Shown here piece after piece: positions 3,120 through 29,610 of a DNA stretch of 43,154 bases. The translations under genes were made by a program, and so were the position numbers. Positions within the stretch are counted from its first letter, which is position 1. Each line of letters opens with the position of its first letter. Origin of the DNA: Bernardetia sp. (GTDB taxonomy: Bacteria > Bacteroidota > Bacteroidia > Cytophagales > Bernardetiaceae); contig JAHDBD010000016.1 in the NCBI GenBank assembly GCA_020630575.1, positions 1-43,154 of the forward strand, read 5' to 3'. The notes under the pieces were generated by a model that was not told the DNA's origin, searched no databases, and worked only from the letters and a program-made list of their open reading frames with translations.

Positions 3120-3569
3120 ATGGCAACTTATCAAGAAGATACTTCTTATACCTCAATGGACAGAGATTCTAAATTTGAATCTGAAGAAACGGCACAAGCA
3201 AAACTTAATCAATTGGATTCTGATGAAGTACAATCCCGACCAGCAGGTCAAGCACCTTCATTTATTATGCGTGTTATGTTAACAAGCATGGTTGTATTTT
3301 TGGTCGCTGTAGGTTTAGAAGTTTTTGTTATGCACTCTGTTATGGATAATCCAGATGTAAACTTAGCTCGTAGAATAGCTGTATTAGCTATTGGTAGTGC
3401 GCTTTTAGGTGGCGCAGTTGGAATGATCACAGGTTTTGCATACGTAATGAAGAAAGAATTCAAATTTAAAAGCGCAATGACTGTAATGGGAGTTGTACTC
3501 GTAATTTTAATGGTCGGAATCGCTATTTTGGGAGATAACCCAATTTTAAATCAATATATGACTAATTAA
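3120..3569 (+). CDS. Hypothetical small membrane protein (acidic N-terminus, 3-4 TM)
   Basis: 149 aa ORF with several hydrophobic helices (MVVFLVAVGLEVFV, IAVLAIGSALLGGAVGMITGF, VMGVVLVILMVGIAILG). Convergent with the HlyD-family gene. No recognisable family. Confidence 0.45.
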   Translation: MATYQEDTSYTSMDRDSKFESEETAQAKLNQLDSDEVQSRPAGQAPSFIMRVMLTSMVVFLVAVGLEVFVMHSVMDNPDVNLARRIAVLAIGSALLGGAVGMITGFAYVMKKEFKFKSAMTVMGVVLVILMVGIAILGDNPILNQYMTN

Positions 3570-3633: not shown

Positions 3634-3667
3634 AAAAGCCTTTTTTCTCACGAAAAAAGGCTTTTTT
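3634..3667. terminator. Bidirectional rho-independent terminator between convergent genes
   Basis: Perfect 14-bp stem AAAAGCCTTTTTTC / GAAAAAAGGCTTTT with a 4-nt loop, flanked by A/T runs on both sides. Confidence 0.65.
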
Positions 3668-3686: not shown

Positions 3687-5018
3687 TTATTCAAAGGCTT
3701 CCACGGAATAGACTGTCTGTTCCAAAAATTTATCTAGCAGACTTCTTTCCTCTAAAACTATTTCTACTGTTCCATAAATTTCATTTTTAGAATCTAAATC
3801 TACTTCGACCTTTCTGTTGGTTTGTAAACCATTGTCTAATTTTAGTTGGACAGAATATTTATTTTCTTGTGGCGCAAGGCTTATCTGTGCAACTTCTGCT
3901 TCTATCCAACCATAACGAGCAAAAGGATAGGCTTCTAATTTTATTTTTGCTTTATTGGCTTCTTTTCCCTCCTTGAGCTTAGAAATATGTTTTGAGTCTA
4001 CTTTTGTATAGGCATAAATAGCATTTTTTTGAGGAATAACAGAAATAATCTCTTTATCCATACCAACTGATTGATACAAATTAAGAGGATTAAAGAAATT
4101 AACTTTACCTTCTATCGGACTAATAATCAAATAAGAGGTTTTCCAATCTTCTAACATTTTCTTTAGAGTTGCAAAACTAGTTCGTAATTGTTGCTTATAC
4201 TTAAATGCTTGCTCTTGATAAGCAATAGAAACTTCTACAAGCTGTTGATTGAGCTGACTAACTCTCATTTGGGCATTTAGATTTGCTTCTTTATTTTGCA
4301 AAAAACTGCTCTCTTTGTTTAGAAATGCACTCTTTGTTTGTAAAAACTCTTGTTTGGCAATTGCTTCACTTTTGTACAATAATGAATCCGTAATATATTT
4401 TTGTTTGCTCAACTCATAGTCTCTTTCTTGAAGTTCATATTTTTCTTGTAAAATAACTCTTAACGAATTTTGAATTTCTATTTCTGAACGAATAGCAGCT
4501 TGTTTTTGAGCATGCGAGTTAGTTTTAGAAAATAACTGATAATCTAAAATATTATTTTTTAGTCTTTCGTAATCTAGTTGTAGATTTCCCAAATTTGTAA
4601 AGAAAGGAATTTCATTTTCCTGAAAAAAATCTACACTTTCAAATACTGAATTTTGACTAGAAAGCGTGTCTAAATAATCTTCTAACTTTTTGGCTTCTTT
4701 CCAATCTGTTGTGCTTTCCAAGACTAATAAAAGCTCATTTTCTTTTACCTCTTGACTATGTGCTGCATTTATAAAAATAATACGGCTATTAATCTTTGGA
4801 AACAAACTTGCTTTTGCTTGATTTGCATATAGTGTTACTTCTGAAGTCGATAATTCAGGGTAACGTATAAAGTGAGAAACGACAAGCATTAGAAGCAAAA
4901 CACCAAAGATGATTGTAATACCTGAACGCATAAAAAAGCCTTGTGGACTTGTCAATAATTCTTGTGTTTCTTCTGAATAAGAGCGAAAAACCTCTTCTCT
5001 TTCTATATTATCTTCCAT
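3687..5018 (-). CDS. HlyD-family secretion adaptor (membrane fusion protein) of bacteriocin/peptide export type
   Basis: 443 aa. Single N-terminal TM (ITIIFGVLLLMLVVSHFI), a long coiled-coil central region and a C-terminal beta domain. This matches the HlyD/CvaA/LcnD-like architecture. Directly downstream of the C39-like/VKOR/Trx gene. Confidence 0.7.
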   Translation of the reverse strand: MEDNIEREEVFRSYSEETQELLTSPQGFFMRSGITIIFGVLLLMLVVSHFIRYPELSTSEVTLYANQAKASLFPKINSRIIFINAAHSQEVKENELLLVLESTTDWKEAKKLEDYLDTLSSQNSVFESVDFFQENEIPFFTNLGNLQLDYERLKNNILDYQLFSKTNSHAQKQAAIRSEIEIQNSLRVILQEKYELQERDYELSKQKYITDSLLYKSEAIAKQEFLQTKSAFLNKESSFLQNKEANLNAQMRVSQLNQQLVEVSIAYQEQAFKYKQQLRTSFATLKKMLEDWKTSYLIISPIEGKVNFFNPLNLYQSVGMDKEIISVIPQKNAIYAYTKVDSKHISKLKEGKEANKAKIKLEAYPFARYGWIEAEVAQISLAPQENKYSVQLKLDNGLQTNRKVEVDLDSKNEIYGTVEIVLEERSLLDKFLEQTVYSVEAFE

Positions 5019-5083
5019 TACAAAATTTACATTATTCTTAGTAGTAGAAACTAATTAGGTACAACTTTAAACTATTTTGATAA

Positions 5084-6766
5084 TTAGTTTTCTTGCAAAG
5101 ATAGTTCTTCTTCTGGATTTTCTTCTGACTCATCCATTTCACTAGCCAAATGAACTAAAAAATACTCTAAATCAGTAACTGTATATTTTTCTGGTAATAA
5201 ATAACCATTTACAATAAAAGCAGGTGTAAAAGTAATTCCTGTCTGATTTATCCAAGTATAATGCTCTGAAATGATACTTTCTTTTTCTTTATCAGAATAA
5301 GATGTTGGAAGATTTGATAACATTTCTGAAATTTGTTTGTAATCTTCACTTGTTTGATTGGCAGTCAGATGGCACATAGTTGTAGTAAAATAATTGCCAA
5401 AATCTTCTCTCAATTTTTGTAAATCTTTCTTTGCGCTAATACAAGGTGGACAAGTAGGGCGACTAATGACAACTAAAGAAACTTTACTCTCCTCTTCTTC
5501 TTCATCTAGTTCGGCTGAAATAGTATTTCCTTCTACAAAATGGGTTGGAACTTCGCTTATATCTACTTTTTTATTTTGATGAAGAAGTGTTTTGAAAACC
5601 TCATAATCATACTTAAAAGAACGTAGATTCTTAGTTTCGTTATTAGAAGAGTTATATTTTTCAAGAACTGGTTTTAAAATATTCCAAATAAATATAGGCA
5701 ACAGGAATGAAAAAACAGCTATTGCTAAAATTGAAAAAACAGAATACAAAGTAAAAGTAGAAGATAAAATTTCATCTTGAAAGCTAAATAAATATATTCC
5801 CCCTAACACAGATTCTACAAACAAAACTGCCATTACAGAAACACAAAGCGAACACCATTCTTTAAGAACAAATTTCTGATAATATAAAGACACAACAACA
5901 GCAAAAATACCCAAAACAGAAATTAAACTTTGAAAAATAAATCCCCAAGAATTACCAATCAGTAAAAATAAAAATGCCCCAAAGAAATAATAAACTCCTA
6001 ATTCAGAAAAGGTAAACCATTTTTTGATTGAATCTATTTTACTGGTATTTTCTTGTTTTATGTCAGCACAAGAAGATGATTTTCCGAAGGCAGTACAGGC
6101 TTTTTTGAAAACTGCGTTATTTTTAAAAATTTCTCCAGAAAGTAAGATAGCACTGATTACAAATCCTATAGTATGTAAAATATAAAAGGAAACTTCAAGG
6201 ATAGACTTTGTGACTTGTTGATTTGTAGTAAAAAAAGTTTTTCCAACTAAAAATAAAAAAGAAATACCTACTAAAACTTGAATGGTATTTTTTATAGTGT
6301 CAGAAAACTGTTGGTTCTTTTGTGCTTTTTTGTGAGCAGAGTAATTTGGTTCTGCTGCATTTTCATTTTTATCTAATAACAGTGTATAACCTGTCCATGA
6401 TTTTTCAAATTCTTCTATTTCAACTATCTGTTTCTCTGAATTGACATTAATCAAGACTACTTCATTGTCTCTAACTTCGTCTAAAATAGAATAATCCGTG
6501 TGTGTTCTTCCATTTTCATCATTATGAGAAGCCAAAACAAGAGCAGGCAAAAGAATTTCTGATAAATGCTCTTTTCCAATCTGAACAGCTAAAGACTCTA
6601 TTTTATAATGTGCTAAGAGTGTAGTAAGATCACTTAATGTTTGAGCATCATTATATTTTGCTGTCAGTTTTTGTAGATAAGTGAAAGTATAAGAAATTTC
6701 AAATTTATCTAATAAAATACTTACGATAGTTTTCATATTATATCTATTTTCTTTTAAAGTTACCAA
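5084..6766 (-). CDS. Tri-domain protein: N-terminal peptidase C39-like domain (no catalytic Cys) + VKOR membrane domain + C-terminal thioredoxin-like CPPC domain
   Basis: 560 aa. N-terminal ~150 aa align with the C39 domain of ComA/PCAT proteins (LPALVLASH...THTDYSILDEV..., conserved WTG motif) but contain no cysteine. The central region has 5-6 TM helices with the VKOR loop Cys pair (CTAFGKSSSC) and a CXXC at the start of a TM helix (CSLC). The C-terminus has a thioredoxin fold with CPPC (VVISRPTCPPCISAKKDL). Confidence 0.8.
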   Translation of the reverse strand: MVTLKENRYNMKTIVSILLDKFEISYTFTYLQKLTAKYNDAQTLSDLTTLLAHYKIESLAVQIGKEHLSEILLPALVLASHNDENGRTHTDYSILDEVRDNEVVLINVNSEKQIVEIEEFEKSWTGYTLLLDKNENAAEPNYSAHKKAQKNQQFSDTIKNTIQVLVGISFLFLVGKTFFTTNQQVTKSILEVSFYILHTIGFVISAILLSGEIFKNNAVFKKACTAFGKSSSCADIKQENTSKIDSIKKWFTFSELGVYYFFGAFLFLLIGNSWGFIFQSLISVLGIFAVVVSLYYQKFVLKEWCSLCVSVMAVLFVESVLGGIYLFSFQDEILSSTFTLYSVFSILAIAVFSFLLPIFIWNILKPVLEKYNSSNNETKNLRSFKYDYEVFKTLLHQNKKVDISEVPTHFVEGNTISAELDEEEEESKVSLVVISRPTCPPCISAKKDLQKLREDFGNYFTTTMCHLTANQTSEDYKQISEMLSNLPTSYSDKEKESIISEHYTWINQTGITFTPAFIVNGYLLPEKYTVTDLEYFLVHLASEMDESEENPEEELSLQEN

Positions 6767-6771
6767 AAAAA

Positions 6772-6817
6772 TAGCGATAGAGTCTTTTGAATATCATCAA
6801 AACTTATTCTATCGCTA
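6772..6817 (-). promoter_or_regulatory. Intercistronic stem-loop between the precursor-peptide gene and the C39-like/VKOR gene
   Basis: Inverted repeat TAGCGATAGAGTCTTTTGA ... TCAAAACTTATTCTATCGCTA forms a 10-bp plus 6-bp stem. It lies in the 78-bp gap between the peptide stop (6845) and the next start (6766). Confidence 0.4.
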
Positions 6818-6844
6818 GATTTTATCAATTACTTCACATTTTGA

Positions 6845-7009
6845 TTCTTATACGTTACAATACTCAGGGAATTGATTTGGGTTACACATAATGTAAGGAG
6901 GACAACAACATTCAGGTAATGTGTTGCATCTGAAACTACCACCATTTACTTTAGTTGCTTTTTCTTGAGAGATAGCAAATTTTCCAAATTTCTTTTTCAA
7001 AGATTTCAT
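6845..7009 (-). CDS. Unannotated 54-aa precursor peptide with double-glycine leader and a 6-Cys core (bacteriocin/RiPP-like)
   Basis: Manual translation gives MKSLKKKFGKFAISQEKATKVNGG | SFRCNTLPECCCPPYIMCNPNQFPEYCNV*. Below the 60-aa ORF-track cutoff. The leader ends in GG. The 5'UTR and leader are paralogous to the ORF at 9998..10192. Confidence 0.6.
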
Positions 7010-7293
7010 AAAAATTGAATTTAATAGGTATAATTAAAATAATTTATCAAGATTACTTACTTATACATTTTTAATAATTACCAAGTAAGTTTGACACTGT
7101 AAATATCAATAAAAACAAAGCAAATTTCCAAATAAAAATTACATTTATTTTTACTAAAATATTAAACAACTGAATTACAGACATTTACAAAGTGTTAATT
7201 TTTAAAAACACAAATTATTTGATATTGTAATTAAAACCCAATATGTTTCTATTTTTAAAACGCTATAATTTATGATAATTCTTTCTTTTTAAT

Positions 7294-7389
7294 CTAAATA
7301 GCTAAAGACTCTACTTTATAGTATGTAAAAAGTAATACAATATTACTTAAAGTTTGAGCTTGATTGGATTTTTTAATAAGCTTTGACAA
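7294..7389 (-). pseudogene. Truncated remnant of a second C39-like/VKOR gene (N-terminal domain fragment)
   Basis: The minus-strand translation ...KLIKKSNQAQTLSNIVLLFTYYKVESLAI* aligns with residues ~32-61 (KLTAKYNDAQTLSDLTTLLAHYKIESLAVQ) of the 5084..6766 protein. There is ~75% nucleotide identity to 6580..6665. No start codon and a premature stop. Confidence 0.45.
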
Positions 7390-7393
7390 AATT

Positions 7394-7433
7394 AGGCGTC
7401 TATAAGACGCCTAATTTGTCTAATAAAAATGTA
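7394..7433 (-). terminator. Terminator hairpin plus conserved 24-bp 3'UTR element downstream of the 473-aa thioredoxin-domain gene
   Basis: Hairpin AGGCGTC-TATAA-GACGCCT. It is followed by GCCTAATTTGTCTAATAAAAATGT, which is near-identical to 9186..9209. Confidence 0.5.
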
Positions 7434-7441
7434 CTTTTATT

Positions 7442-8812
7442 TTATAATTGATTGATTTGAGTTTCCAATGCTTTATATTGTCTCTCATCAAAAGTCTCAT
7501 CTTTTACTTCAAAAGCTTTTTCTAGCATTTTTTGTGCTTTTTGTTTTTCCTTATTGTGAAAGAAAACTTTTGCAGCAGTAAAATAGTCAGAATAAGAAGC
7601 AAGATATTCTTTCTCTAAAACTTGTTTCCAAATAGTGCTTAGGTATGATATTACTTCTTCTTGAACTTCCATTTTCAAATATTTTGAGGTATTATCATTT
7701 AAAAAATATATAGGCATTTGACTATCATTTCTAAAATTTTCTTCTATATTTTTTTGTAGATTATCAATTTGTCCATATTTCAAAAGATATTTACCAAACT
7801 TTGCACTCTCATTAATTTGAAAATAAAAGTTCATAGCTTCTCTATTTGTGATGAAAGTAACAAAACTATGAGAAATGGGACGTTCAAAACTTCTTTCTTT
7901 GCTGAGTAATTCTAATTTTTCAGAAAATAGTTCGTATTTTGAAATAGCCTTTTCAAAGTTTGTCATATCTTCCTCTGATATATTTTTTATTTCTTTAGTG
8001 TGACTAATAATTTTATCAATAGCATTAAAAAAAAGTATCTCTTCCATATAATTTTCATACGCCATTATGCTATCTCCATAGTTTTCTTCAAATTTATCTA
8101 TATGATCAAGATAAAAATTATATGTTTTATCGTTTCTGGTTTGTATTAATCTTTCTAATAAAAACTCAACTTGTTGCTTAGAATATTCGTTTTTTTCTTG
8201 CATACATTCTACAAATCTATCTTTTATTAAAATCATTTCTTTCTGTAGCTCATCTTCAGGAATAATACCCAAATATGTAATTACTAAATCTACATTACAA
8301 GGATTTTCAAAGTATTTTTGTTTTGCTCCTTTGTGTATAAGTTGATTTACTTCAGATTCTGATGAAAAAACTTTTCCTTTCTTCAAAGCCTGTCCATAAA
8401 TTAGTAGTTCATAGGCTGCTAAAGCACCTACATATTTAGATATCAGATTTCCCTCTCCATCTAGAAATAATAAAGTAGGAACGACTGAAATTTGATAATC
8501 TTTACTTATTTTTTTTCCTTTTTCTGTTTCTGTATTAATTTTGATATTCACAAAATTATTATTGAAATAGGCTGACAAAGTAGAATCTGTAAAAGTAAAT
8601 TTATCCATTTCTTTGCAAGGCTTACACCAATTTGTATAAGTATCTATAAAAATCAGTTTATTTTCTTTTTTAGCTTTGTCTTTAGCTTCTTCAAAGGAAA
8701 GGTATTCGAATAATATTCTTTTGCCTTGTTTAAGGTTTAAACTGTTATCTTGAGCTAGAACGGAAAAAGAAATACAAATAAATAACAGAATATAGATTAA
8801 TTTAGATTTCAT
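7442..8812 (-). CDS. Secreted thioredoxin-fold protein (WCKPCK active site) with long C-terminal helical extension
   Basis: Probable start at the internal Met, giving signal peptide MKSKLIYILLFICISFSVLAQ. The ORF track extends to 8863. Thioredoxin-like region FIDTYTNWCKPCKEMDKF. The remaining ~330 aa has no assigned family. Confidence 0.65.
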   Translation of the reverse strand: MKSKLIYILLFICISFSVLAQDNSLNLKQGKRILFEYLSFEEAKDKAKKENKLIFIDTYTNWCKPCKEMDKFTFTDSTLSAYFNNNFVNIKINTETEKGKKISKDYQISVVPTLLFLDGEGNLISKYVGALAAYELLIYGQALKKGKVFSSESEVNQLIHKGAKQKYFENPCNVDLVITYLGIIPEDELQKEMILIKDRFVECMQEKNEYSKQQVEFLLERLIQTRNDKTYNFYLDHIDKFEENYGDSIMAYENYMEEILFFNAIDKIISHTKEIKNISEEDMTNFEKAISKYELFSEKLELLSKERSFERPISHSFVTFITNREAMNFYFQINESAKFGKYLLKYGQIDNLQKNIEENFRNDSQMPIYFLNDNTSKYLKMEVQEEVISYLSTIWKQVLEKEYLASYSDYFTAAKVFFHNKEKQKAQKMLEKAFEVKDETFDERQYKALETQINQL

Positions 8813-9170
8813 AATAAAAGTAGTAAAAGTTAATTCTTGGATGATTACAATATTATATGTCAAAAATTTAGAAAAGTAAACCTATTTTTCCAACTCCTCA
8901 AAAACTACTTAATATCAATTTTTAAAAATTATATATATTTACATAAAACACACCTTTTCAATATTGATAATTTACAAGTGCTTATAATATTTAATAAGAA
9001 TTATTTTGACCAATAGATTAAATGTGTTTTTAATCCTGTGTTTTCAGTTTTGATAGTTCAGTTGTACAGAATATATTAGTGCAAATTTGGATATACCATC
9101 AAAAAATAATACTACTTTATCTCTTTTAAAATACACATAGTTCTATTTTTTATTAATTTTTGATAAAAAA

Positions 9171-9209
9171 AGGCGTGTTGAACCGCCTAATTTGTCTAAT
9201 AAAAGTGTG
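9171..9209 (-). terminator. Terminator hairpin plus conserved 24-bp 3'UTR element downstream of the TlpA-like gene
   Basis: Hairpin AGGCG-TGTTGAAC-CGCCT preceded by an A-run (U-run on the minus-strand transcript). It is followed by GCCTAATTTGTCTAATAAAAGTGT, paralogous to 7410..7433. Confidence 0.5.
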
Positions 9210-9225
9210 ATTATGTTTTTATTGA

Positions 9226-9915
9226 TTATTCCTCTAAAAGAGCAGTAATCTCATTTGTATATAAAGGAAAGTAATCATAAATGTGCTGTGAATAACCAGA
9301 AGTAATAAAACGAATAACTCCTTTTTTATCAATAAAATAGCTTTTAGGGGCAGCTTCTGTAAGATAATATTCTTTTAAAAAGTCTTTTGTAACATTTTTA
9401 AATTCCTTGCTGACTCTATCATCTTTATAATAACCATCACCATTCTTTCCAAGATAAGAAGCAGGAATAACTTTTACCTCATCGTTGTACTTTCCTTCTC
9501 TAAACTCTTTACCTTTTTTAGGGTTTTCTAGATATTTTTGTAAAGCTAAGAAATCTTCTGGGGTATCATGATGTGAAATCATCACAAAAACCACTTCTTT
9601 ACCTTTATAGTATTTTTCTAATTTATTTATAAAAGCTATCTCACGCATACACGGACCACAAAGGCGAAACATAGTAGTAAATAAAACTACTTTGCCTTTT
9701 AAATCAGATAACTGCACAGAATCTCCTTTTAGAGTTCTGAATTTAAAATTAGTAGCTTGTGTATCTAGCAATGTATCCATCTGTTCTTTACATTGTTTGC
9801 CTAAAGATGTTTTATAATAACTTTCTTTTGTCAGAACCTCTAAAGTAGTGGTATCTTGAGCTAACGAATGAAAACAAATAAAAAATAATAAGAAAGCAAA
9901 AATATTTTTTTTCAT
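9226..9915 (-). CDS. Secreted TlpA/redoxin-like thiol-disulfide oxidoreductase (CGPC)
   Basis: 229 aa with signal peptide MKKNIFAFLLFFICFHSLAQ. Thioredoxin-fold active site VVLFTTMFRLCGPCMREI. Immediately downstream of precursor peptide B. Confidence 0.7.
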   Translation of the reverse strand: MKKNIFAFLLFFICFHSLAQDTTTLEVLTKESYYKTSLGKQCKEQMDTLLDTQATNFKFRTLKGDSVQLSDLKGKVVLFTTMFRLCGPCMREIAFINKLEKYYKGKEVVFVMISHHDTPEDFLALQKYLENPKKGKEFREGKYNDEVKVIPASYLGKNGDGYYKDDRVSKEFKNVTKDFLKEYYLTEAAPKSYFIDKKGVIRFITSGYSQHIYDYFPLYTNEITALLEE

Positions 9916-9997
9916 AATATTTGAAATTTAGTATAATTAAAATTAGCTAGACTATTTAATTATAGTCCAACTAATTTTAAAAATAATTGAAATAACT

Positions 9998-10192
9998 TTA
10001 AACAGCAGTACAATATCCACCATCTGTATCTGCAAGTGCTTGCAAATCATCCATATTTTCGGCTGCAATAAGCCAATCTGTTCCACTTCCATCTGAGTTT
10101 TGAGTACAAACAGCCATGATGCCACCCTTAACTTTAGCCAATTTCTCAGTAGAAACAGCAAACTTTCCAAATTTTTTCTTTAACGAGTTCAT
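9998..10192 (-). CDS. 64-aa precursor peptide with double-glycine leader and a 2-Cys core
   Basis: MNSLKKKFGKFAVSTEKLAKVKGG | IMAVCTQNSDGSGTDWLIAAENMDDLQALADTDGGYCTAV. The leader is ~80% identical to the peptide at 6845..7009. The 5'UTRs are also homologous (cataaaaat..atttaa...). Confidence 0.6.
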   Translation of the reverse strand: MNSLKKKFGKFAVSTEKLAKVKGGIMAVCTQNSDGSGTDWLIAAENMDDLQALADTDGGYCTAV

Positions 10193-10483
10193 AAAAATAC
10201 GATTTAAGAATTATAAATAAAAATAGTTCCTCAAAAATACGATTAGCAGTTTCTAGAATACCTACTTGAGTATGTTTGATTGCACAAATATCAAAAAAAA
10301 AAAAAGCATATTTCCTAATCAAAATAGCAGTTGCATTAAAAATATTCTTTAATCAACTAATAATAAGCGATTTGCAAAATATTAAATTTCATATCAATTG
10401 TATTTTTTAAAGTTTATCATTGATATTTATAACTATTTTAAATATTTTTTCAGGTTAGATAAAGTATTTTTTGACAAAAAAAA

Positions 10484-10541: not shown

Positions 10542-13500
10542 TTAATCTTCTTTAGCTATTTTGAAAGTAAGTGTTTCACTTGGTGTAACTACATTGATAA
10601 AATACATTCCCGAAGCATACTTACTCAAATCCAAACGGATTTCTTGTTGAGATTCTTCTCTGGAAATAGATTTAGTGATGAGAGTTCTACCAATACCATC
10701 AGTAAGTGTAAGTGTGAAGGCATCTTTTAAGTTAGCAGCCAATTTCAAACGAACCTCAGAACTAGTTGGGTTTGGATAAACTAATGTACAACAATTTCCT
10801 TCTTCGTCATCAACACCTGTAACTGGTTCAGGCTTACGATAAAAGATACTATTTGAAGTAATAGCTTGACAACCTGTATCATAGGTAACTTTAGCTCTGT
10901 AACGCCCTGTTTCATTAAGAGCAAGTGAAAGAGAATTAGAAACACTAAGCATTTCACCATCTTTACTCCACTCCACTTCTGTAATTGTTCCAGTAGATGT
11001 TATTGTTGCGATATTTTCTTCTACTAGATTAATATGTGCTGTTGGAACATCTATTCTTTCAATACTTACTGAATCGGTAATGAATACACAACCAGTTCCT
11101 AAAGAAACCTCAACATGATACTTTCCTGAACTATTCACAGTAAAGTTTCTATTTTCAGAACCTATACGCAATCTATTTCCATTTCTAAATAAAGTATAAA
11201 TTGCATTTTCTACTTCTGAAACAGAAATTATAGCACCTTGATCTCCTGCACAAAACTGTTCTTTGTCAGCAGTAATACTAATGTCTGTTGGAAATGAAAT
11301 TACCTCTACATTAATTTGAGCTTCTTGAGTACATGTTTCTTTGCTTACTCGCAATGTATAAGTTCCTGCATTAGAAACTGTAATAGAAGAACTTGTTCCT
11401 ATTTCAGTATCATTAAACAACCATTGATAAGTCGCACCTTCTACTTCTAAAGCAGATAATTGACCTGTTTCACACAACAATACTTGGCTACCTTGTTCTA
11501 TTTGAGCAGGAGCAACTTGTCCTACTTTCACTTGAACAGTTGGAGATACCATTGAAACACACTCATTTTGTGTTATTCTTAATGAGTAATTTCCACTTCT
11601 AATAACTTGATAAGTTGGCGCATTGCTATTTTGTATAGCTACTCCATTTGAATACCAAGTATAAATCAAATCAGAAGAAGCATTTTGTGTATCTGCTTCT
11701 AAAGTCAATGTGTTTTCACAGGTTGAACGGACTAAATCTCCCAAAATAGTTGCTACTGGAATTTCTTTAACATCAATAGTAACAGCTAATCTGGTCTGAC
11801 TTTCATAACGAATACCATTTGCAGCAACATAATAGGTTTTTGCAGCAGTAAGGTTTTGAGTTTCGAAAGTATAAGAATCATCTTGAATAGGCTCAGTAGA
11901 TGTTTCAGACTCATACCAAAGAATACTTCTTGTTGTATGTGTACTATTTACTACAATCTTTCCTTTTCCACCTGCACAAGCATCTGTTTTGCTTATTAAT
12001 GTTGGAGCTTTAGGGTAAGTAACAGCATTGGTAGCAACTTCTTTTCTAGATACTGAATTGAATGCTTCTAGTCTATACCCATAAAAAGTATCTTCATTCA
12101 ATAAGCTATCATCATAAGAAAGAGTAGAAGCTGATAGAGTTGCCACCAAACGGTTTAATCTATATAACTTATACCCAGTTGCATTTGTAGCAGCTTGCCA
12201 AGTAAGGTCAATACGAGAAGTATCTATTGCAATAGCTTTAAATTGTGTAGGTGCAGATACTGATGGTATAGTATTTCCTCCTCCACCTGTTGGAGCAACT
12301 ACATTTATAAGGCTACTTAAATCGGTAAAAGCACTTCCATCATCATTTACTCGTATACTATACTCTCCAATTTCATCAAATTGTAAATCTGACCAAGTAA
12401 ATACTCCATTTATCATAGCACGACTTCCTAATCCAGAAGTAGCACTAAGAACTCCAGTTCCAGTTCCTCCGTCTCTTAACAATGTAATTGTTCTGGCTGC
12501 TCGGTCTATATTTCCATTTGCATCAAGTGCCTGTACGCTTACTACAAAGTTTGAGCTAACAGTTGCTGTTGTTGGTACAGTTGAAAAACCTAAACGTGTA
12601 GCCACCACCTCTAAAGTAAATGTATTTGATACTACATTAGCAGGGAAAGTAGATGCAAAAGAAGAAGAACTATTTGAAGTTTGCGCTCCATGTGCCACAC
12701 TAGGAATTTGGAATTGTAATACTCCTTCGTCTAAAACTCCTGTTGTATTCAAAAACACTTTTACAGTATAGTCTGTATTTGTTCCATTTGCTGTGCTTGC
12801 ATTACCAGCAGGAATAGTAAAACGAATTTGGTCTGCCGTAATAGTAGCTGTTGCAGTAATCTGAGTTCCTCCAGACCATAATTCTGCTCCTTGTAGTTGT
12901 GTTGTCCAGTCTGTTACTGTATTTGCAACTCCTTGTTTAATATCAACCTGAGTTACATCAGTAGGCAAAGCATCTGTTGTTGCTAAATCCTCTACTTTAA
13001 AAGAAAATACTTCTACTGCATTAGCTGATGTAGTAGCCAATGAAGATATTGAGACAGAAGCAGGCATTGTGGTTGGCGCAACAATTCGTGAGTCTGCATC
13101 TGCTGATGTAGTAATAGTAGTAAACTGCCAGTTAGCAGGTAAAACCCCTCCAAAACCTAAACTATTAGCTGTAAATGTACTGCTAGGAACATCCACAGAA
13201 TAAGTTGTAGAAGTTGCTAGTGCCGAAGGTAAAGTTACGGTTGCTGTATTTCCTGTAATTGTAGTATTAGTTGCAGAAACAGGAATTACAATTGGAGTAG
13301 CTCCTCCTGTAAGAGTAATAGAGCCTGTACCGATAGTAGGAACACGATTAAAAGTAAGAGCTAGTGATGTATTTGTATTTACATTAGTCGCATTATTTGC
13401 AGGCAAAAAGCTAACTAATTCAATAGGCTTTTCTCTTACAACTACATCATCAACAGCAAAACCATATCCCCAAGTATTCAAATCATCATAGTAAAAAGCA

Positions 13501-16500
13501 ATCCATACTTGAGGTTCGTTAGCATACGCATCTAAATCTAGGGTAACATCTTGCCAAACGCCAGATATAGATGCCATTGTATGAATAGTTGTCCAAGTAA
13601 TTCGGTCTGTACTTATACGAACCTCTCCTCTATCCGTTCGGAATACAGCTCTAAATGCCATTTCAATTTGAGAATAAGAGGAAAAATCAAACTTTGGACT
13701 AATCAACCACGATTTATAAGGTGCTCCACAACCTGGACTAGGACAAGCATCATCGTTTGCTGCTGCATATTGATTACCAGCAGGAACATCTGGGATGGTA
13801 AAGAAAGAACTTCCCAAGTTAGTTCCATACTGCCAAGTTCCAACTCCTGCTCCATCATTTATTATATCCCAACACTCTGCAGGATTTGGATTCTCAAAAT
13901 CTTCTGTATAAGGTAGTACAGTAACAGGAGGATTATTTTGAACTGTATGATTTGAAATAGCATTATTTGCTCCATTTGTATCAGTTGCTAGGTTAGCAGA
14001 TGCTGTAAGAACATAACTACCTCCTGCTGACATATCTACTGTAGTAGTAAATGTATAATCTAAACTAGCTGCACCATTTAAATCACTAGCTAAAACAAGA
14101 TTTTCATTTACTGCTGTTCCACCATTTACTGTGTAAGAAACTGGAATTGTTGTTCCACTTGGTATAGCAGAACAAGCTAAGTTTTTGATACGAATTGTAA
14201 TGGCTTCAGTAGCTGTTCTCAAATCACAACCTTGTGTTGGAGAAACGATTGCTGAAAGTTCTAAATCTATTCCTGAGCCAGCAGCAGGAGTAATAGAAAA
14301 CGCTACTGAACGCTGACTTGTAGCTCCTGTAGTTGTATTTCTTGCACGAATACTAAACCAAGTTTGTCCTGAAAGCCCTGTTGCAGTAAAAGTAGTAGTT
14401 GCACTTGTTCCTATTTGTGTATATACTCCAGTAGTAGTGTTCAACTGATAAACAATATACTCGTCTGCATCAGTTACTGCATTCCATTGTAAGATAGCTG
14501 AACCACTACAAGGCTGACCTGTAATACCAGTAGGAACACCAATAATTGAAAATGCTTCACTTGTTCCACTTAAAGATGGAGTTGCTGAAGAAACACGAAT
14601 CTTTGCTTCATTAGTCATTGCATTTGGAACAGTCCAACTCAAACGACGAGTGTTGGCAGCCACAGCACCATTAATAACTGTCCAAGTAGTTCCATTATCC
14701 AAAGAATACTCAACAGAAGTAGTTCCTGAAACTCCTTCCATATCCCATTGAATAAGTTCAGTAGCAGAAGGCGTTAAAGACATTCCAGCTGATGGATAAG
14801 TAACTTCAATATAAGGTTCTGTAACCGTCCAAGTCAATGAATATTGTTGGTTTGCTCCAGACGGAACAGCTGTTCCTTTTACTCTTAGTGTATATGTTCC
14901 TGTTGCTGGGGTAGGAATAGTTACTTGTTCGATAATATCTACATTGTTTACAGCTCTAATAGCTACATTATTCGGATTTGCACCATCTAATGTCCAAGGA
15001 AGCCAAGTATTTGTAGTTGGGTCTAATACTTCTAAATCCAAATTATTTATCAAAGCAGGATTTGCATTTGCTGCTGCTGCTGGGTCAGACCAACATAACA
15101 TTACTTTTAGTTCGTGTGTACCAGCAGGAACAGCAATAGTAACATCATTTTGTCCTGCTGTCGTAACTGTATTTATTGCATAATTATTTCCCTCTAATGC
15201 TTTAACAGCTTTCAAACCATTAATTCTACCAAAACCATATTTATAATCAGGCCCTGTATTTCCTAAATCATCAGCATTATTTGATAATACAGCCTTCATA
15301 AGTGAGGCAATAGGGTCTGCATTTGCATTTAATTGACGATAGCTTTGATAAAGTTGAGCTACTGTACCCGAAACACCTGGTGCTGCCATTGAAGTACCAC
15401 TATTTGCTCCATATCCATTACTTGGTAATGTAGAAACTACACCATTTCCGAATGCACTTACTTCAGGTTTGATACGTCCGTCTTCAAGAGGACCAAAACT
15501 ACTAAATGTAGTAATAACATCGTTATTTGTTAAAGCTCCTACTGTAATTGTGTTTTTGGCTGCTTTTCCTGTTGTAGAACCAAAACCACCTGCACAAGAA
15601 CTTTGAGAATTGCCTGATGAAAATACATGAACAAGTTGAGGATTATTATTTACTAATAAATCTTGTCCTCTATTATTACTACCATAAGGGTCGCCAGTAG
15701 CACAATTAGGTCCTCCTCCGTATGAATTTTGAGTAATTACAATACCAAAGTTAGTAATGGCATTTTGCATTTCAGTAGCAATATCTCCATTAAAGTTATG
15801 AGAATAAATTTGAGCATTAGGAGCCATTCCTGTATTTCTAGGATTTAGTAAACCTGCTCCTGCCATTGTTCCTGCTACGTGTGTTCCGTGGTCGCTATCT
15901 GATGTATTTTCTACAAGAGTACGTCTTCCACTAAAGTCTAAATGATTTGCAACGTTTCCTCCGTCCCAAATTCCAAGATTTACTCCTGAACCATCTAAAT
16001 TTCTAGCACCATAATTTAGGATAGCCGAACGGTGGGCTAATTTTCCATAATAATTTTCTTCTTTTGGAGGCTCTGGCAAAGATTCTACCCAAAGTACCCA
16101 AGGCAAATTAGCTACTTGCATAATTGCTGTTTGAGGTACACTTACTGTCAGAATACCTGATACTTTACTTTCATAGATTAGCTTTCCTCCCATGTTTATC
16201 ATAGCCATAGAAGTAAGCATGGGATTTACAGTATCAAAGGGAATAATATTCAATTCTACTTGATTAGGCTCAGAAATAGCCCATTCAGGAATATCTCCTT
16301 GTACTAATCTTGTTTGCGTTTTTTGATTAACAGACAGTTTTACAAACGCATGAATCTTAAAATCTGAAATAAGAGCTTCTAATTTATCATTAGAAATAGT
16401 AGAATTGATTTTTGCAGTATAGGATAAATCTGGCAAATACTGAATCAGTTCGATACCTTTACTTTTTAGATTTTGACGTTGTTGATGTGATGGAAGAGTA

Positions 16501-16757
16501 GTAAATTGTACTACTAAAAAATAATGATTTCCAAAAAGAGCATCTGAAAAACTACTCTTATCATTTTTAAACTGCTCAGTATTTGATGTATACTGTTCAA
16601 TAGATGATTTTAAACGTAAGGAAGGGGAAGAGCTTTGTGCAATTGCTGATTGCATTTGAGAACTCAATATACCTATTCCCAAAACAAGTAATAATACAAG
16701 TTTTTGATAAGAAATAATTGAGTTCTTTGAAGAAGAAAACGAATGTCTATGCTTCAT
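10542..16757 (-). CDS. Giant secreted subtilisin-like (S8) serine peptidase with multiple Ig/FN3-like domains and a T9SS C-terminal sorting domain
   Basis: 2071 aa with a signal peptide. S8 catalytic motifs: D (LGIWDGG), H (DSDHGTHVAGTMAG), S (GTSMAAPGVSGTVAQL). Long Thr/Ser/Gly-rich beta-domain repeats. The C-terminal ~80 aa (CCTLVYPNPTSSEVRLKL...MYFINVVTPSETLTFKIAKED) match the Por/T9SS CTD. Confidence 0.85.
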   Translation of the reverse strand: MKHRHSFSSSKNSIISYQKLVLLLVLGIGILSSQMQSAIAQSSSPSLRLKSSIEQYTSNTEQFKNDKSSFSDALFGNHYFLVVQFTTLPSHQQRQNLKSKGIELIQYLPDLSYTAKINSTISNDKLEALISDFKIHAFVKLSVNQKTQTRLVQGDIPEWAISEPNQVELNIIPFDTVNPMLTSMAMINMGGKLIYESKVSGILTVSVPQTAIMQVANLPWVLWVESLPEPPKEENYYGKLAHRSAILNYGARNLDGSGVNLGIWDGGNVANHLDFSGRRTLVENTSDSDHGTHVAGTMAGAGLLNPRNTGMAPNAQIYSHNFNGDIATEMQNAITNFGIVITQNSYGGGPNCATGDPYGSNNRGQDLLVNNNPQLVHVFSSGNSQSSCAGGFGSTTGKAAKNTITVGALTNNDVITTFSSFGPLEDGRIKPEVSAFGNGVVSTLPSNGYGANSGTSMAAPGVSGTVAQLYQSYRQLNANADPIASLMKAVLSNNADDLGNTGPDYKYGFGRINGLKAVKALEGNNYAINTVTTAGQNDVTIAVPAGTHELKVMLCWSDPAAAANANPALINNLDLEVLDPTTNTWLPWTLDGANPNNVAIRAVNNVDIIEQVTIPTPATGTYTLRVKGTAVPSGANQQYSLTWTVTEPYIEVTYPSAGMSLTPSATELIQWDMEGVSGTTSVEYSLDNGTTWTVINGAVAANTRRLSWTVPNAMTNEAKIRVSSATPSLSGTSEAFSIIGVPTGITGQPCSGSAILQWNAVTDADEYIVYQLNTTTGVYTQIGTSATTTFTATGLSGQTWFSIRARNTTTGATSQRSVAFSITPAAGSGIDLELSAIVSPTQGCDLRTATEAITIRIKNLACSAIPSGTTIPVSYTVNGGTAVNENLVLASDLNGAASLDYTFTTTVDMSAGGSYVLTASANLATDTNGANNAISNHTVQNNPPVTVLPYTEDFENPNPAECWDIINDGAGVGTWQYGTNLGSSFFTIPDVPAGNQYAAANDDACPSPGCGAPYKSWLISPKFDFSSYSQIEMAFRAVFRTDRGEVRISTDRITWTTIHTMASISGVWQDVTLDLDAYANEPQVWIAFYYDDLNTWGYGFAVDDVVVREKPIELVSFLPANNATNVNTNTSLALTFNRVPTIGTGSITLTGGATPIVIPVSATNTTITGNTATVTLPSALATSTTYSVDVPSSTFTANSLGFGGVLPANWQFTTITTSADADSRIVAPTTMPASVSISSLATTSANAVEVFSFKVEDLATTDALPTDVTQVDIKQGVANTVTDWTTQLQGAELWSGGTQITATATITADQIRFTIPAGNASTANGTNTDYTVKVFLNTTGVLDEGVLQFQIPSVAHGAQTSNSSSSFASTFPANVVSNTFTLEVVATRLGFSTVPTTATVSSNFVVSVQALDANGNIDRAARTITLLRDGGTGTGVLSATSGLGSRAMINGVFTWSDLQFDEIGEYSIRVNDDGSAFTDLSSLINVVAPTGGGGNTIPSVSAPTQFKAIAIDTSRIDLTWQAATNATGYKLYRLNRLVATLSASTLSYDDSLLNEDTFYGYRLEAFNSVSRKEVATNAVTYPKAPTLISKTDACAGGKGKIVVNSTHTTRSILWYESETSTEPIQDDSYTFETQNLTAAKTYYVAANGIRYESQTRLAVTIDVKEIPVATILGDLVRSTCENTLTLEADTQNASSDLIYTWYSNGVAIQNSNAPTYQVIRSGNYSLRITQNECVSMVSPTVQVKVGQVAPAQIEQGSQVLLCETGQLSALEVEGATYQWLFNDTEIGTSSSITVSNAGTYTLRVSKETCTQEAQINVEVISFPTDISITADKEQFCAGDQGAIISVSEVENAIYTLFRNGNRLRIGSENRNFTVNSSGKYHVEVSLGTGCVFITDSVSIERIDVPTAHINLVEENIATITSTGTITEVEWSKDGEMLSVSNSLSLALNETGRYRAKVTYDTGCQAITSNSIFYRKPEPVTGVDDEEGNCCTLVYPNPTSSEVRLKLAANLKDAFTLTLTDGIGRTLITKSISREESQQEIRLDLSKYASGMYFINVVTPSETLTFKIAKED

Positions 16758-27545: not shown

Positions 27546-27992
27546 ATGAAACTAACCATTGAAACTCCAATCAACCGTTCTGCCCAAGAGGTATGGAATG
27601 GCTTTACAGAAAAACTGTTTTTAAAACTTAGTCCTCCTTTTCCAAAGCTCAAACTAAATCGTTTTGATGGCTGTAAAGTAGGAGATGAAGTACATTTAGA
27701 ATTAGATTTTGGGATTTATAGCTCAAAATGGACTTCTTATATTGTGGAACAAGCTGAAACAGAAAGTGAAATTTATTTTATAGATACAGCCGAAAAAGAT
27801 TTGCCCTTTCCTCTCAAAAAATGGAAACACCATCACAGAATAAAAAAAATAGATGAGAATTCGTGTATAATTATCGATGATATAGATTATTATACTTCAT
27901 CTAAGATTTTAGATACAATAATTTATCCTGGAATGTGGGCGCAATTTGCCTATAGAAGTCCTGTTTATAAAAAGTTTTTCGAAGAGGATTAA
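27546..27992 (+). CDS. SRPBCC (START/Bet v1-like) family protein
   Basis: 148 aa. The N-terminal pattern IETPINRSAQEVWNGFTE is typical of polyketide-cyclase/SRPBCC-fold small proteins. Confidence 0.45.
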   Translation: MKLTIETPINRSAQEVWNGFTEKLFLKLSPPFPKLKLNRFDGCKVGDEVHLELDFGIYSSKWTSYIVEQAETESEIYFIDTAEKDLPFPLKKWKHHHRIKKIDENSCIIIDDIDYYTSSKILDTIIYPGMWAQFAYRSPVYKKFFEED

Positions 27993-29125
27993 AATTTTGG
28001 TTCTCTAGGCAAACAAACAATAAAAGTAGTTCCTTCATCAACTGTACTTTTTACATCTATTTTTCCCCCATTACTATATACGATATTTCTAACCAAATGT
28101 AATCCAATTCCTCTTCCTTCTATTTCAGTATTATCTTCGTGTAAACGTTGAAACATACCAAATAGACGGTTTTTATTGGCTTCCATGTCGATTCCTATTC
28201 CGTTATCTTCTACATTTAAGCAATAATATTCTTCTTGAGATTCTGCCCATATTTTTATTTTAGGAGTACGTTTCGGAGAGCGATATTTTATAGCATTTGA
28301 AAGGAGGTTTTGCATAATGCTATACATTAAATCGGGAACAAAAGAGATAGTTTGTTCGTCTGTGAGATCTACTTCAATGTCAATATCAGGTTGATTGTAA
28401 ATCTCTCGCATATCTTGAATTACCTTTCTAGTAAAACTAGATAATTCTATTGTATCAAATTTAGAACCTGAGGTTTGCTGTTCGACAAGAGTTTTGACAA
28501 GTGATTTTAATTTAAGGTGTAATTTGTCCACTCCTTTATATACCTCATCCATTACCTCTTCGGCAGTCTGGGTCAAATCATTGTGTTTTTTTTCTAATTC
28601 GTACAGTTGGATAGAAGCCTTTATAGAAACAATAGGTGACATAAGGTCATGAGAAATAATATGAGCAAACTGTTCTAGTTTTTGATTATATCCTCTGAGC
28701 ATGTCCATTGTTTTGGTCATTTGTTTTTGCGCTTCATTACGCTGTAAAGCATACAGAATTGCTCTTTCCATTCCAAACTCATCCAATGTTCCTTTGACAA
28801 TGTAATCAGCTGCTCCTAAAGAAATAGCTTCTAAACCTACATGAACATCATTTAATCCTGTCAAAACAATAACAGGTGTTCCATAATAATTATCTGTAAT
28901 TGTTTTACATGTTTCTAATCCATGACTATCAGGCAATGACAAATCTAAGAATACTAAATCTACTTTTTTTGTATTCAATTCTTTTAAACCCTCAGTAAGA
29001 GTGCCTGCTGTAATCAGGTTTTTGACAGGGAATGTAGTCTTCTCTAGTATTTCTTGCATGAGAAACTGATCAGCTATATTATCTTCTATCAATAAAATAT
29101 GTATTCTATTCAAAGTTCGATTCAT
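27989..29125 (-). CDS. Hybrid response-regulator/histidine kinase (N-terminal REC + HisKA + HATPase_c)
   Basis: 378 aa. REC (ILLIEDNIADQ...VFLDLSLPDSHG), H-box (IISHDLMSPIVSIK), ATPase motifs (EDNGIGID, GRGIGLHL). Last gene of the phytochrome operon. Confidence 0.8.
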   Translation of the reverse strand: MNRTLNRIHILLIEDNIADQFLMQEILEKTTFPVKNLITAGTLTEGLKELNTKKVDLVFLDLSLPDSHGLETCKTITDNYYGTPVIVLTGLNDVHVGLEAISLGAADYIVKGTLDEFGMERAILYALQRNEAQKQMTKTMDMLRGYNQKLEQFAHIISHDLMSPIVSIKASIQLYELEKKHNDLTQTAEEVMDEVYKGVDKLHLKLKSLVKTLVEQQTSGSKFDTIELSSFTRKVIQDMREIYNQPDIDIEVDLTDEQTISFVPDLMYSIMQNLLSNAIKYRSPKRTPKIKIWAESQEEYYCLNVEDNGIGIDMEANKNRLFGMFQRLHEDNTEIEGRGIGLHLVRNIVYSNGGKIDVKSTVDEGTTFIVCLPREPKF

Positions 29126-29181
29126 GATGTAAAAGGTTATTGCTCAAAATTAAAGGTCACTTTTTGTGTTTTTGTTCTAGT

Positions 29182-29610
29182 CTATGAGTTAGGCAGTTTT
29201 ACTATGGTCAGCCAAAAATTATTTATAGAAGAAACAATTTTGGTAAATTCATCCATTTCAACAGGCTTACTAATATAACTATTTGCATGATTTTTATATG
29301 CAAATTTTACATCTTCTTCATTTTCAGAAGTAGTCATAATCACAACAGGTATGAGACAAAGTTCGTCATGTCCTTTGATTTCCTTTAATACTTCTCTTCC
29401 ATCTTTACGAGGCATGTTCAAATCCAAGATAATTAAATCTGGCAACTTTTCACTATCATTTTCTAGTCTTTCATAAAGATATTCCATTGCCTTTTCGCCA
29501 TCAATAACAGTATCAATATCAAGATTAAGTTTACTTTCAAGCAAACTTTCTTGAATTAATACAGTATCAGCAAGATTATCTTCTACTAAAAGAATTTTGA
29601 TGGGTTTCAT
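29182..29610 (-). CDS. Single-domain CheY-like response regulator
   Basis: 142 aa. KILLVEDNLADT...LIILDLNMPRKDG receiver motifs. Immediately downstream of the bacteriophytochrome gene. Confidence 0.8.
   Translation of the reverse strand: MKPIKILLVEDNLADTVLIQESLLESKLNLDIDTVIDGEKAMEYLYERLENDSEKLPDLIILDLNMPRKDGREVLKEIKGHDELCLIPVVIMTTSENEEDVKFAYKNHANSYISKPVEMDEFTKIVSSINNFWLTIVKLPNS

Follow-up and report, generated by a model that had tools for sequence, protein, structure and literature searches.

A three-domain C39-like/VKOR/DsbA-like membrane protein as predicted disulfide maturase in a peptide export locus of Bernardetia sp.

How are the cysteines of small exported peptides paired, and on which side of the membrane, if the peptide genes share one locus with a putative membrane-bound thiol oxidase and a periplasmic adaptor, and no ATP-binding cassette (ABC) transporter is encoded nearby? 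This question is raised by positions 3687-10192 of a 43,154-nt stretch of Bernardetia sp. (contig JAHDBD010000016.1; the whole analyzed stretch is referred to as the window). The region is a real, coherent locus, coding for two peptide precursors with double-glycine (GG) leaders (pep1 and pep2), two secreted thioredoxin-fold proteins (Trx229 and Trx473), a three-domain membrane protein (the fusion) and a putative HlyD-family adaptor. On balance, it appears to contribute cargo, maturation and adaptor to a Bacteroidota system that exports bacteriocin-like, Cys-rich peptides via HlyD and a full peptidase-ABC (C39-ABC) exporter (PCAT), with a cytoplasm-facing disulfide maturase acting prior to export. 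Considered separately, the assignment of the fusion as dedicated disulfide maturase of a PCAT/HlyD peptide system is regarded as very likely from its domains and gene neighbours. The locus is of a known kind, i.e., PCAT-exported disulfide peptides together with dedicated oxidoreductases, built on a widespread and uncharacterised fusion that is predicted to be inverted in the membrane. Every element named in an original prediction made from the sequence alone was found on the minus strand at the same position, except that pep2 ends at 6848 rather than 6845 (aa, amino acids; TM, transmembrane):

3687-10192, minus strand: whole locus, transcribed in the order pep1, Trx229, Trx473, pep2, fusion, HlyD
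10192..9998, minus strand: pep1 precursor, 64 aa (open reading frame, ORF)
9915..9226, minus strand: Trx229, TlpA/ResA-like thioredoxin-fold protein, 229 aa (ORF, Pfam and NCBIfam)
8863..7442 with likely start at 8812, minus strand: Trx473, thioredoxin-domain protein, 473 aa (ORF, Pfam and NCBIfam)
7009..6848, minus strand: pep2 precursor, 53 aa (ORF)
6766..5084, minus strand: ORF of the three-domain membrane fusion protein; ATG at 6736 corresponds to the start of the homologues and yields 550 aa
6347..6736, minus strand: fusion residues 1-130, predicted C39-like pseudo-peptidase domain
6230..6289, minus strand: fusion residues 150-169, extra TM helix (TMa) preceding the VKOR core (hydropathy, AlphaFold2 (AF2) model and profile alignment)
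5678..6193, minus strand: fusion residues 182-353, VKOR four-helix core and fifth linking helix
5117..5554, minus strand: fusion residues 395-540, DsbA/BdbD-like thioredoxin domain
5018..3687, minus strand: putative periplasmic adaptor of the HlyD family, 443 aa, with a single TM helix at the N-terminus

Comparison of the fusion with Pfam models returned Peptidase_C39 (2.2e-12), VKOR (1.1e-08) and a thioredoxin domain, in agreement with all three domains originally called. The N-terminal domain has the papain-like C39 fold. The VKOR part comprises the four-helix core with loop cysteines 214/223 and a CSLC motif (295/298) at the start of TM4 (PF07884), while the thioredoxin part is DsbA/BdbD-like with a helical insert, CPPC (429/432) and Thr-cisPro (504/505). 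When 1.84 billion cluster representatives (50 % identity) were searched exhaustively with a profile, 4217 relatives were found, including 1668 clusters at E<=1e-30, with the best 150 of the 4217 matches being nearly all full-length (500-560 aa); 147 members drawn from these best 150 served for residue and loop statistics. The VKOR loop pair (C214/C223) and CXXC (C295/C298) are invariant (147/147), and the thioredoxin CXXC (C429/C432) and cis-Pro are kept in 146-147 of the 147 members.

The N-terminal domain departs from this conservation of redox residues: no conserved Cys is present in it across the 147 members. In an alignment with 60 PCAT peptidase domains, the column of the catalytic Cys is occupied by Cys in all 60 PCATs, compared to Asn in 81 of the 147 fusions, where Cys is not among the six commonest residues. 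Likewise, the catalytic His (60/60 PCATs) is mostly replaced by Glu, Leu, Asp, Asn, Tyr or Ser, the oxyanion Gln is not retained, and the Asp is found in 56 of the 147 fusions only. Thus, two of the domains belong to the VKOR and DsbA-like families, whereas the N-terminal one is only C39-like because it fails on the catalytic residues; judged from its alignment, it is a pseudo-peptidase rather than a C39 peptidase, as anticipated by the description of a cysteine-less domain. It also carries a family signature motif, HPxYPSL, without counterpart in PCAT peptidase domains.

The family is large, widespread in Bacteroidota, uncurated and unstudied. NCBI names its members "vitamin K epoxide reductase family protein" or "C39 domain-containing protein", no NCBIfam model covers them (leader-domain models exist for some of the peptides), and a literature search combining VKOR with C39, bacteriocin, double-glycine, leader peptide or RiPP (ribosomally synthesised and post-translationally modified peptide) retrieved no description of the architecture. 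Cluster look-up of ten family representatives returned no taxonomy, and domain-by-domain comparison of divergence within the Bernardetia clade yielded no informative difference. Two fusion copies, each beside its own peptide set, occur on contigs L072, L074 and L082, and likewise in the Emticicia genome with plasmids NC_018742 and NC_018749.

The genetic context of the fusion was compared across 80 metagenomic loci, scanned with an alignment of the closer family subset, and annotated plasmids. GG-leader ORFs with at least two core cysteines were found 47 times on the fusion strand as compared to 3 times in the reversed-sequence control and twice on the opposite strand. Applying a relaxed cleavage motif (GG, AG, GA or GS), a leader-bearing Cys-rich ORF starts 90-310 nt past the fusion stop codon in about 47 of 65 loci, the commonest leader being MKTxKMSLANIQGKLSRAEMKNIMAG. 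The number of core cysteines is even in 18 of 19 strict matches (mostly 6 or 8). The proposal that homologous fusion genes would consistently neighbour GG-leader Cys peptides has thus held. Where at least 8 kb are available on both sides, a PCAT gene followed by hlyD lies at most 10 kb from the fusion gene in 12 of 16 loci, the other four having no nearby PCAT.

Of the 60 ORFs located between fusion and PCAT, 31 encode TlpA/Redoxin-type thioredoxin-fold proteins with signal peptides, in line with the extra thioredoxin-fold genes pointed out originally. Also recurrent are DUF6625 (10/60), DUF6734 (5/60) and glycosyltransferases; the two DUF proteins may, from their recurrence, represent further parts of the system. 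Annotated arrangements are exemplified by plasmid pEMTOL01 of Emticicia oligotrophica (histidine kinase, LytTR, fusion, two peptides, TlpA, PCAT, HlyD, TolC) and by the Parabacteroides distasonis plasmid NZ_OY725766.1 (L085, 7965-15778), where the fusion is accompanied by a 59-aa Cys-rich peptide, DUF4369, LanC, two glycosyltransferases and a PCAT. LanC and the glycosyltransferases of the latter hint at additional glycocin- or lanthipeptide-like modification in some of the loci.

The two peptides of the window fit this pattern. The leaders of pep1 (MNSLKKKFGKFAVSTEKLAKVKGG) and pep2 (MKSLKKKFGKFAISQEKATKVNGG) comprise 24 residues each, end with GG, share 18 of 24 positions and have hydrophobic residues at -4 and -7. 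The pep1 core (40 aa) is acidic with 2 cysteines, that of pep2 (29 aa) contains 6. Both precursors would qualify as class II bacteriocin-like from their leaders, the type of which also occurs beside a PCAT in Bernardetia sp. MNP-M8; weak matches to the Bacteriocin_IIc and bactofencin models (Pfam, NCBIfam) are confined to the leader part. In relatives of the genus, members of this leader family adjoin the fusion or a PCAT, with leaders 50-96 % identical and unrelated cores, e.g., a leader in MNP-M8 that is 96 % identical to that of pep2 with a different core. Between close strains the whole cassette from the S8 peptidase gene to the fusion varies within syntenic flanks (window 6848-10192 versus 8773-9883 in the MNP-M8 locus, L089), containing two peptides and two thioredoxin-fold genes in the window, compared to three peptides and no thioredoxin-fold genes in MNP-M8. 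Conserved leaders in front of unrelated cores represent a pattern typical of diversifying cargo, here predicted to be bacteriocin-like. The small ORFs were also considered as chance ORFs; this was rejected, since the leaders are conserved and the cores variable across strains, and NCBI annotates the counterparts in MNP-M8.

HlyD of the window matches TIGR01843 (6.3e-20, residues 30-429; 71.5 bits, below the cut-off of 208), has no Pfam match and contains its TM helix near residues 30-50. It is 88-89 % identical in the close loci L001-L003 and matches adaptor genes following PCATs elsewhere at 1e-30 to 1e-42; its homologues directly follow PCATs in 28 metagenomic loci. Since no ABC transporter is encoded within the 43-kb window, the pairing of HlyD with an ABC exporter is not realised there. 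Relatives provide the missing component. The proteins closest to the fusion are from Bernardetia (Cytophagales; the best among the matches listed being 94 % identical, from MNP-M8), and the contig scan detected at least four close loci (L001-L004). In Bernardetia sp. OM2101 and two metagenome-assembled genomes, a PCAT of 730-760 aa with the catalytic Cys present is encoded in divergent orientation just upstream of the peptide genes, and a PCAT is adjacent to the locus in L001, L002 and L004. Synteny with the window is conserved at the fusion locus of MNP-M8 (PBP, S8 peptidase of 2071 aa, peptides, fusion, HlyD, NifU, sigma factor, HlyIII, MscL), and the complete genome of this strain contains an orthologous PCAT (92 % identical to that of L001) at 2.2 Mb distance from the fusion locus. 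This PCAT adjoins an 82-aa peptide of the same leader family (MKNLKKRFGKFAVSNKDANRISGG) with 6 core cysteines, as well as a 612-aa TlpA-like lipoprotein.

Because relatives carry the PCAT either next door or 2.2 Mb away beside a same-leader peptide, the window can by extrapolation be read as the portion of a split PCAT system that encodes cargo, maturase and adaptor; the ATPase would be unlinked rather than absent. The absence of an ABC ATPase, as noted originally, is true within the 43-kb window; an architecture working without one is not supported, given the PCAT within 10 kb in 12 of 16 loci and in the Bernardetia relatives. The window as the whole system was rejected, the PCAT being linked or located elsewhere in relatives. 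As a separate observation, the Cytophagales metagenome-assembled genome L004 (9670-10259) retains an intact PCAT and a leader fragment, lacks HlyD, and has its fusion reduced to remnants (residues 19-70 and 511-544); judged from these remains, this locus appears to be decaying.

On which side of the membrane the fusion would act was deduced from helix number and loop charges. Hydropathy analysis indicates six conserved hydrophobic helices in the family, i.e., TMa, the four VKOR helices and the fifth linking helix, and the AF2 model places helices at residues 132-168, 172-203, 243-260, 263-291, 296-318 and 330-375, with TMa and VKOR TM1 paired as a hairpin around a turn of three residues. When profiles were aligned with PCAT1 residues 68-186, TMa proved homologous to PCAT TM1, and the stretch ahead of it to the part of PCAT1 that precedes TM1 in the cytoplasm. 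A signal peptide is lacking from the N-terminal domain. Because the number of spans is even, the C39-like and DsbA-like domains should reside on the same side. Mean numbers of Lys plus Arg (K+R) in the 147 members are 4.9 before TMa, 0.33 in loop a-b, 4.6 in the VKOR Cys loop (b-c), 0.22 in loop c-d, 1.8 before the CXXC (d-e), 0.22 in loop e-f and 6.2 after TMf, summing up to 17.5 on the domain-bearing side as compared to 0.76 on the opposite side, with the same sign in 147/147 members. The VKOR of Synechococcus has the opposite bias (loop 2-3 PLVKRWRWP, loop 4-5 HRWLDGGK, Cys loop net acidic).

Two controls were considered. In PCATs of the same phylum, where PCAT1 structures define the topology, K+R make up 2-5 % of the periplasmic loops versus 7-39 % of the cytoplasmic flanks, peaking before TM1 (22 %) and after TM4 (39 %), whereas HlyD shows no bias beside its large periplasmic body (K+R 2.0 versus 1.96 on the two flanks). 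Because of the latter, the topology argument draws on short loops, number of helices and lack of a signal peptide rather than on the flanks. A canonical VKOR was sought as further control among the retrieved loci and none was found. With six TM helices and positive charges confined to the domain-bearing side, and in the absence of a signal peptide, all three functional parts (C39-like domain, VKOR active site, DsbA-like domain) probably face the cytoplasm, i.e., the fusion would represent an inverted VKOR. We know of no inverted VKOR in bacteria. The prediction for the fusion thus differs from the canonical periplasm-facing orientation, and the periplasm-facing VKOR chemistry assumed originally is no longer favoured in view of the six TM helices and loop charges.

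Both further thioredoxin-fold proteins possess signal peptides. Trx229 has a CGPC motif and matches AhpC-TSA (4.1e-12) and Redoxin (3e-11) in Pfam and ResA (1.3e-12) in NCBIfam. In Trx473, the signal peptide (MKSKLIYILLFICISFSVLAQ) opens at the likely start ATG 8812; a DsbD-gamma-like thioredoxin domain with the motif WCKPC (Thioredoxin_2, 6.4e-13; Thioredoxin_7, 4.5e-12; C-terminal domains of DsbD and TsoB in NCBIfam) is followed by a helical C-terminal part of about 300 aa, and a homologue (42 % identity) is present in the close locus L002. From their signal peptides, the two would perhaps act in the periplasm as isomerase, reductase, proofreader or in some other role.

Domain identities, invariant residues and gene neighbourhoods are direct observations, whereas substrate, topology and the sequence of steps are deduced. 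Combining these features, the following order of events may be envisaged. Pep1 and pep2 would be synthesised in the cytoplasm with their 24-residue leader. The C39-like domain, unable to cleave with Cys and His gone, would hold the leader or dock the enzyme to the exporter, while the CPPC of the DsbA-like domain would oxidise the core cysteines of the leader-bearing precursor. The DsbA-like domain would then be re-oxidised by the VKOR loop cysteines and CXXC, with the electrons handed over to membrane quinone. Finally, the PCAT, encoded elsewhere in the genome, would cut after GG and the folded peptide would be exported through HlyD. Such a pre-export order would explain why a leader-type domain is present, the leader being lost once the PCAT has acted, and it also fits a route able to bypass the periplasm; the cavity of PCAT1 is reportedly roomy enough for small folded proteins. 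In its complete form, i.e., an inverted VKOR functioning jointly with an inactive C39 domain for leader recognition and with a DsbA-like domain as quinone-driven disulfide synthase at the cytoplasmic face, which installs two to five disulfides in leader-bearing peptides and passes the folded products to PCAT/HlyD, the scheme is offered as a serious, if tentative, possibility.

Several points weigh against this scheme. Bacteroidetocin activity needs a locus-encoded thiol oxidoreductase (PMC6671954). The conserved signal-peptide TlpA-like proteins, making up 31 of the 60 intervening ORFs, most simply fit peptide redox chemistry in the periplasm, and the reducing cytoplasm would oppose disulfide formation. 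Charge counts beside large domains are unreliable and thus weak evidence, as illustrated by the HlyD control, and since the window encodes no PCAT, PCAT export in the source genome is extrapolated from relatives.

Part of this evidence would be accommodated by a conventional orientation, with the VKOR active site and DsbA-like domain in the periplasm, the peptides oxidised after PCAT transport and the TlpA-like proteins as partners or isomerases. All characterised bacterial VKOR and DsbB proteins known to us face the periplasm, and the fusion matches the Synechococcus structure. The periplasmic TlpA-like genes conserved in the loci are the main evidence for such an arrangement, to which a gene order paralleling that of bacteroidetocin loci (TM protein, peptide, thiol oxidoreductase, PCAT) and the unreliability of flank charges beside large domains can be added. 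The C39-like domain would then be either periplasmic, so that a folded domain of ~130 aa lacking a signal peptide had to traverse the membrane, or a cytoplasmic docking module, provided that TMa, a 19-residue uncharged helix antiparallel to VKOR TM1, does not span. Moreover, about 6.4 K+R of the two active-site loops and less than 1 of the three opposite loops would be on the wrong sides in 147/147 members, although the PCAT controls follow the positive-inside rule, and a leader-type domain would find no substrate in the periplasm, since PCATs cut the leader cytoplasmically. Conventional orientation is therefore considered unlikely, while still to be taken seriously, and the inverted fusion is preferred. 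One may further ask whether the C39-like domain reads the leader at all, or rather ties the oxidase to HlyD or PCAT such that substrate choice results from proximity to the exporter. The latter would agree with the HlyB C39-like domain contacting HlyD and the substrate body, with the adjacency of fusion and HlyD in the Bernardetia clade and with the HPxYPSL signature, which PCAT peptidase domains lack. However, the tightest linkage of the fusion gene is to a peptide gene (90-310 nt) rather than to HlyD or PCAT, and the domain is still folded overall like the C39 domains of LahT150 and PCAT1, by which GG leaders are bound. Pure docking is thus rather doubtful; the domain could serve leader reading and docking together.

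According to the original prediction, fusion and HlyD would by themselves suffice for an export without ATPase that is driven or accompanied by leader recognition and oxidative folding. The lack of an ABC gene in the 43-kb window, the adjacency of fusion and HlyD genes (65 nt apart, with a single terminator after HlyD) and the four of 16 well-flanked metagenomic loci that also have no nearby PCAT can be quoted in its favour. This is outweighed by the PCAT linked in 12 of these 16 loci and in L001, L002 and L004, by the retention in MNP-M8 of an orthologous PCAT (92 % identical to that of L001) beside a same-leader peptide, and by the inability of the C39-like domain to remove the leader. To our knowledge, HlyD adaptors are known solely as partners of inner-membrane pumps, and no translocation function is known for the VKOR fold. 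Hence, leader-dependent export without an ATPase is very improbable. Least credible is a housekeeping role, i.e., a general VKOR-type oxidase of the cell with coincidental small-ORF neighbours. It would agree with the NCBI label "vitamin K epoxide reductase family protein"; it is at odds with a neighbourhood signal far exceeding the controls, with at least two copies beside different peptide sets (L072, L074, L082 and two Emticicia plasmids), with the location of the gene within a strain-variable cassette and with its decay to remnants in L004.

The transcriptional organization of the locus can be delineated from the following elements:

10232-10239: Bacteroidota -7 box TATTTTTG upstream of pep1
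9171..9188, minus strand: terminator-like hairpin 3' of the Trx229 gene
7392..7414, minus strand: terminator-like hairpin TTAGGCGTC-TTATA-GACGCCTAA followed by TTTTG, 3' of the Trx473 gene (read from the sequence)
3634..3665, both strands: bidirectional terminator-like hairpin ending the pep2-fusion-HlyD unit

The S8 peptidase gene upstream of pep1 also ends in a terminator-like hairpin. Because such hairpins follow the S8, Trx229, Trx473 and HlyD genes, three transcription units are likely, i.e., pep1 with Trx229, Trx473 alone, and pep2 with fusion and HlyD, the HlyD gene starting 65 nt past the fusion gene. A sigma-70 promoter scan remained at chance level (50 sites versus 41 expected).

Directly upstream of pep1, a 2071-aa S8 subtilisin-like peptidase is encoded (10542-16757, minus strand) with Big_5, Ig-like repeats and a type IX secretion C-terminal sorting domain. 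Its gene holds the same position in MNP-M8 (L089); with a terminator between it and pep1, it is probably unrelated to the peptide locus. Convergent with HlyD and using the same bidirectional terminator, an ORF of 149 aa (3120-3569, plus strand) has an acidic N-terminus and four predicted TM segments, with a counterpart in MNP-M8 (152 aa) and none in L001; immunity, for instance, would be conceivable as its function, with the evidence pointing neither way. Further away, a bacteriophytochrome (PAS-GAF-PHY histidine kinase; 29742-32156, minus strand) adjoins a heme oxygenase (32221-32832, minus strand), a single-domain response regulator (29182-29610) and a response-regulator/kinase hybrid (27989-29125, minus strand), such that 27989-32832 (minus strand) looks like a light-sensing operon by its gene content. 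A protein of 1387 aa (33628-37791, plus strand) combines Reg_prop beta-propellers, Y_Y_Y, GAF and a SpoIIE phosphatase domain, and the window ends with the gene for PorV of type IX secretion (42202-43095, minus strand).

If the scheme of cytoplasmic maturation is correct, the fusion would represent a new class of leader-guided peptide-modifying enzyme, using leaders as RiPP enzymes do, and the first case of dedicated cytoplasmic disulfide formation in bacteria, distributed across more than 1000 Bacteroidota sequence clusters. Action on the cytoplasmic side would shift the view of where bacteria make disulfide bonds, explain the exit of multi-disulfide peptides via a PCAT/HlyD route bypassing the periplasm, and provide a compact, portable enzyme for producing disulfide-rich peptides in the cytoplasm of a host. 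The fusion gene is also a very good marker for Cys-rich peptide genes, an unannotated one being present within 300 nt in about 70 % of the loci, and genome mining with it opens a large, diverse pool of candidate Bacteroidota bacteriocins, including those of gut Parabacteroides.

Dedicated oxidoreductases for secreted peptides are already known; the novelty resides in the combination of oxidase, redox partner and leader-peptidase-like module in one protein. The C39-like domain shares its fold and N-terminal position, as well as the following helix homologous to PCAT TM1, with the C39-like domain of the RTX exporter HlyB and with PCAT peptidase domains (PCAT1, ComA, LahT150), and, as in HlyB, the catalytic residues are lost; in contrast to these proteins, it is attached to a redox enzyme rather than to an ABC transporter. 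With the VKOR of Synechococcus (PDB 3KP9/4NV2), the fusion has in common the four-helix core, the loop Cys pair, the CXXC, the fifth linking helix and a fused thioredoxin-fold partner. It differs by the additional N-terminal TM helix and C39-like domain, by a DsbA/BdbD-like partner with helical insert and by the reversed charge bias of the loops. Inverted forms of DsbB and VKOR are said to have been engineered by Hatahet and Ruddock in 2013. In archaea, an inverted VKOR (VKORi) with cytoplasm-facing active site exists in Pyrobaculum aerophilum (as cited in bioRxiv 10.64898/2026.03.26.714578). In VKORi and the engineered proteins, such an orientation permits disulfide formation in the cytoplasm; for the fusion, the orientation is only predicted. 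Moreover, they are stand-alone proteins of a hyperthermophile or laboratory constructs with general substrates, whereas the fusion is bacterial, bears a leader-peptidase-like domain and is encoded in peptide-export loci.

The original prediction aptly compared the locus to sublancin and pediocin. In the sublancin/glycocin clusters (SunA, SunS, SunT, BdbA, BdbB; GccC/D) and for pediocin with PedC, a GG-leader precursor and a PCAT are likewise accompanied by a membrane oxidase dedicated to disulfide formation, which works with a thioredoxin-like partner. Some relatives of the fusion locus resemble glycocin clusters (nomenclature: PMC12457901) also by additional glycosyltransferases and LanC. In the Firmicutes systems of sublancin and pediocin, however, the DsbB-type and thioredoxin-type proteins are separate and act outside the Gram-positive membrane, whereas the oxidase described here is of the VKOR type, fused to a DsbA-like partner and an inactive C39 domain, with a predicted cytoplasmic orientation.

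Closest among the known systems are the bacteroidetocins (class IIf) of gut Bacteroidales, whose loci encode a GG-leader Cys peptide, a PCAT and a thiol oxidoreductase needed for activity (Coyne et al. 2019, PMC6671954). A five-TM protein of unknown role, membrane-spanning over its whole length, is also required, and leaders of 15-16 aa precede mature peptides of 42 aa with 4 cysteines (PMC6671954). Like the loci described here, those of the bacteroidetocins come from Bacteroidota and combine short peptides, which have GG leaders and paired cysteines, with a PCAT and a thiol oxidoreductase encoded at the locus. The order TM protein, peptide, oxidoreductase and PCAT parallels that of fusion, peptide, TlpA-like protein and PCAT, a likeness in gene order. 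The bacteroidetocin TM protein is described with five TMs, in contrast to the C39-like/VKOR/DsbA organization of the fusion. HlyD is not described for bacteroidetocin loci, whereas the locus of Bernardetia sp. encodes an HlyD-type adaptor.

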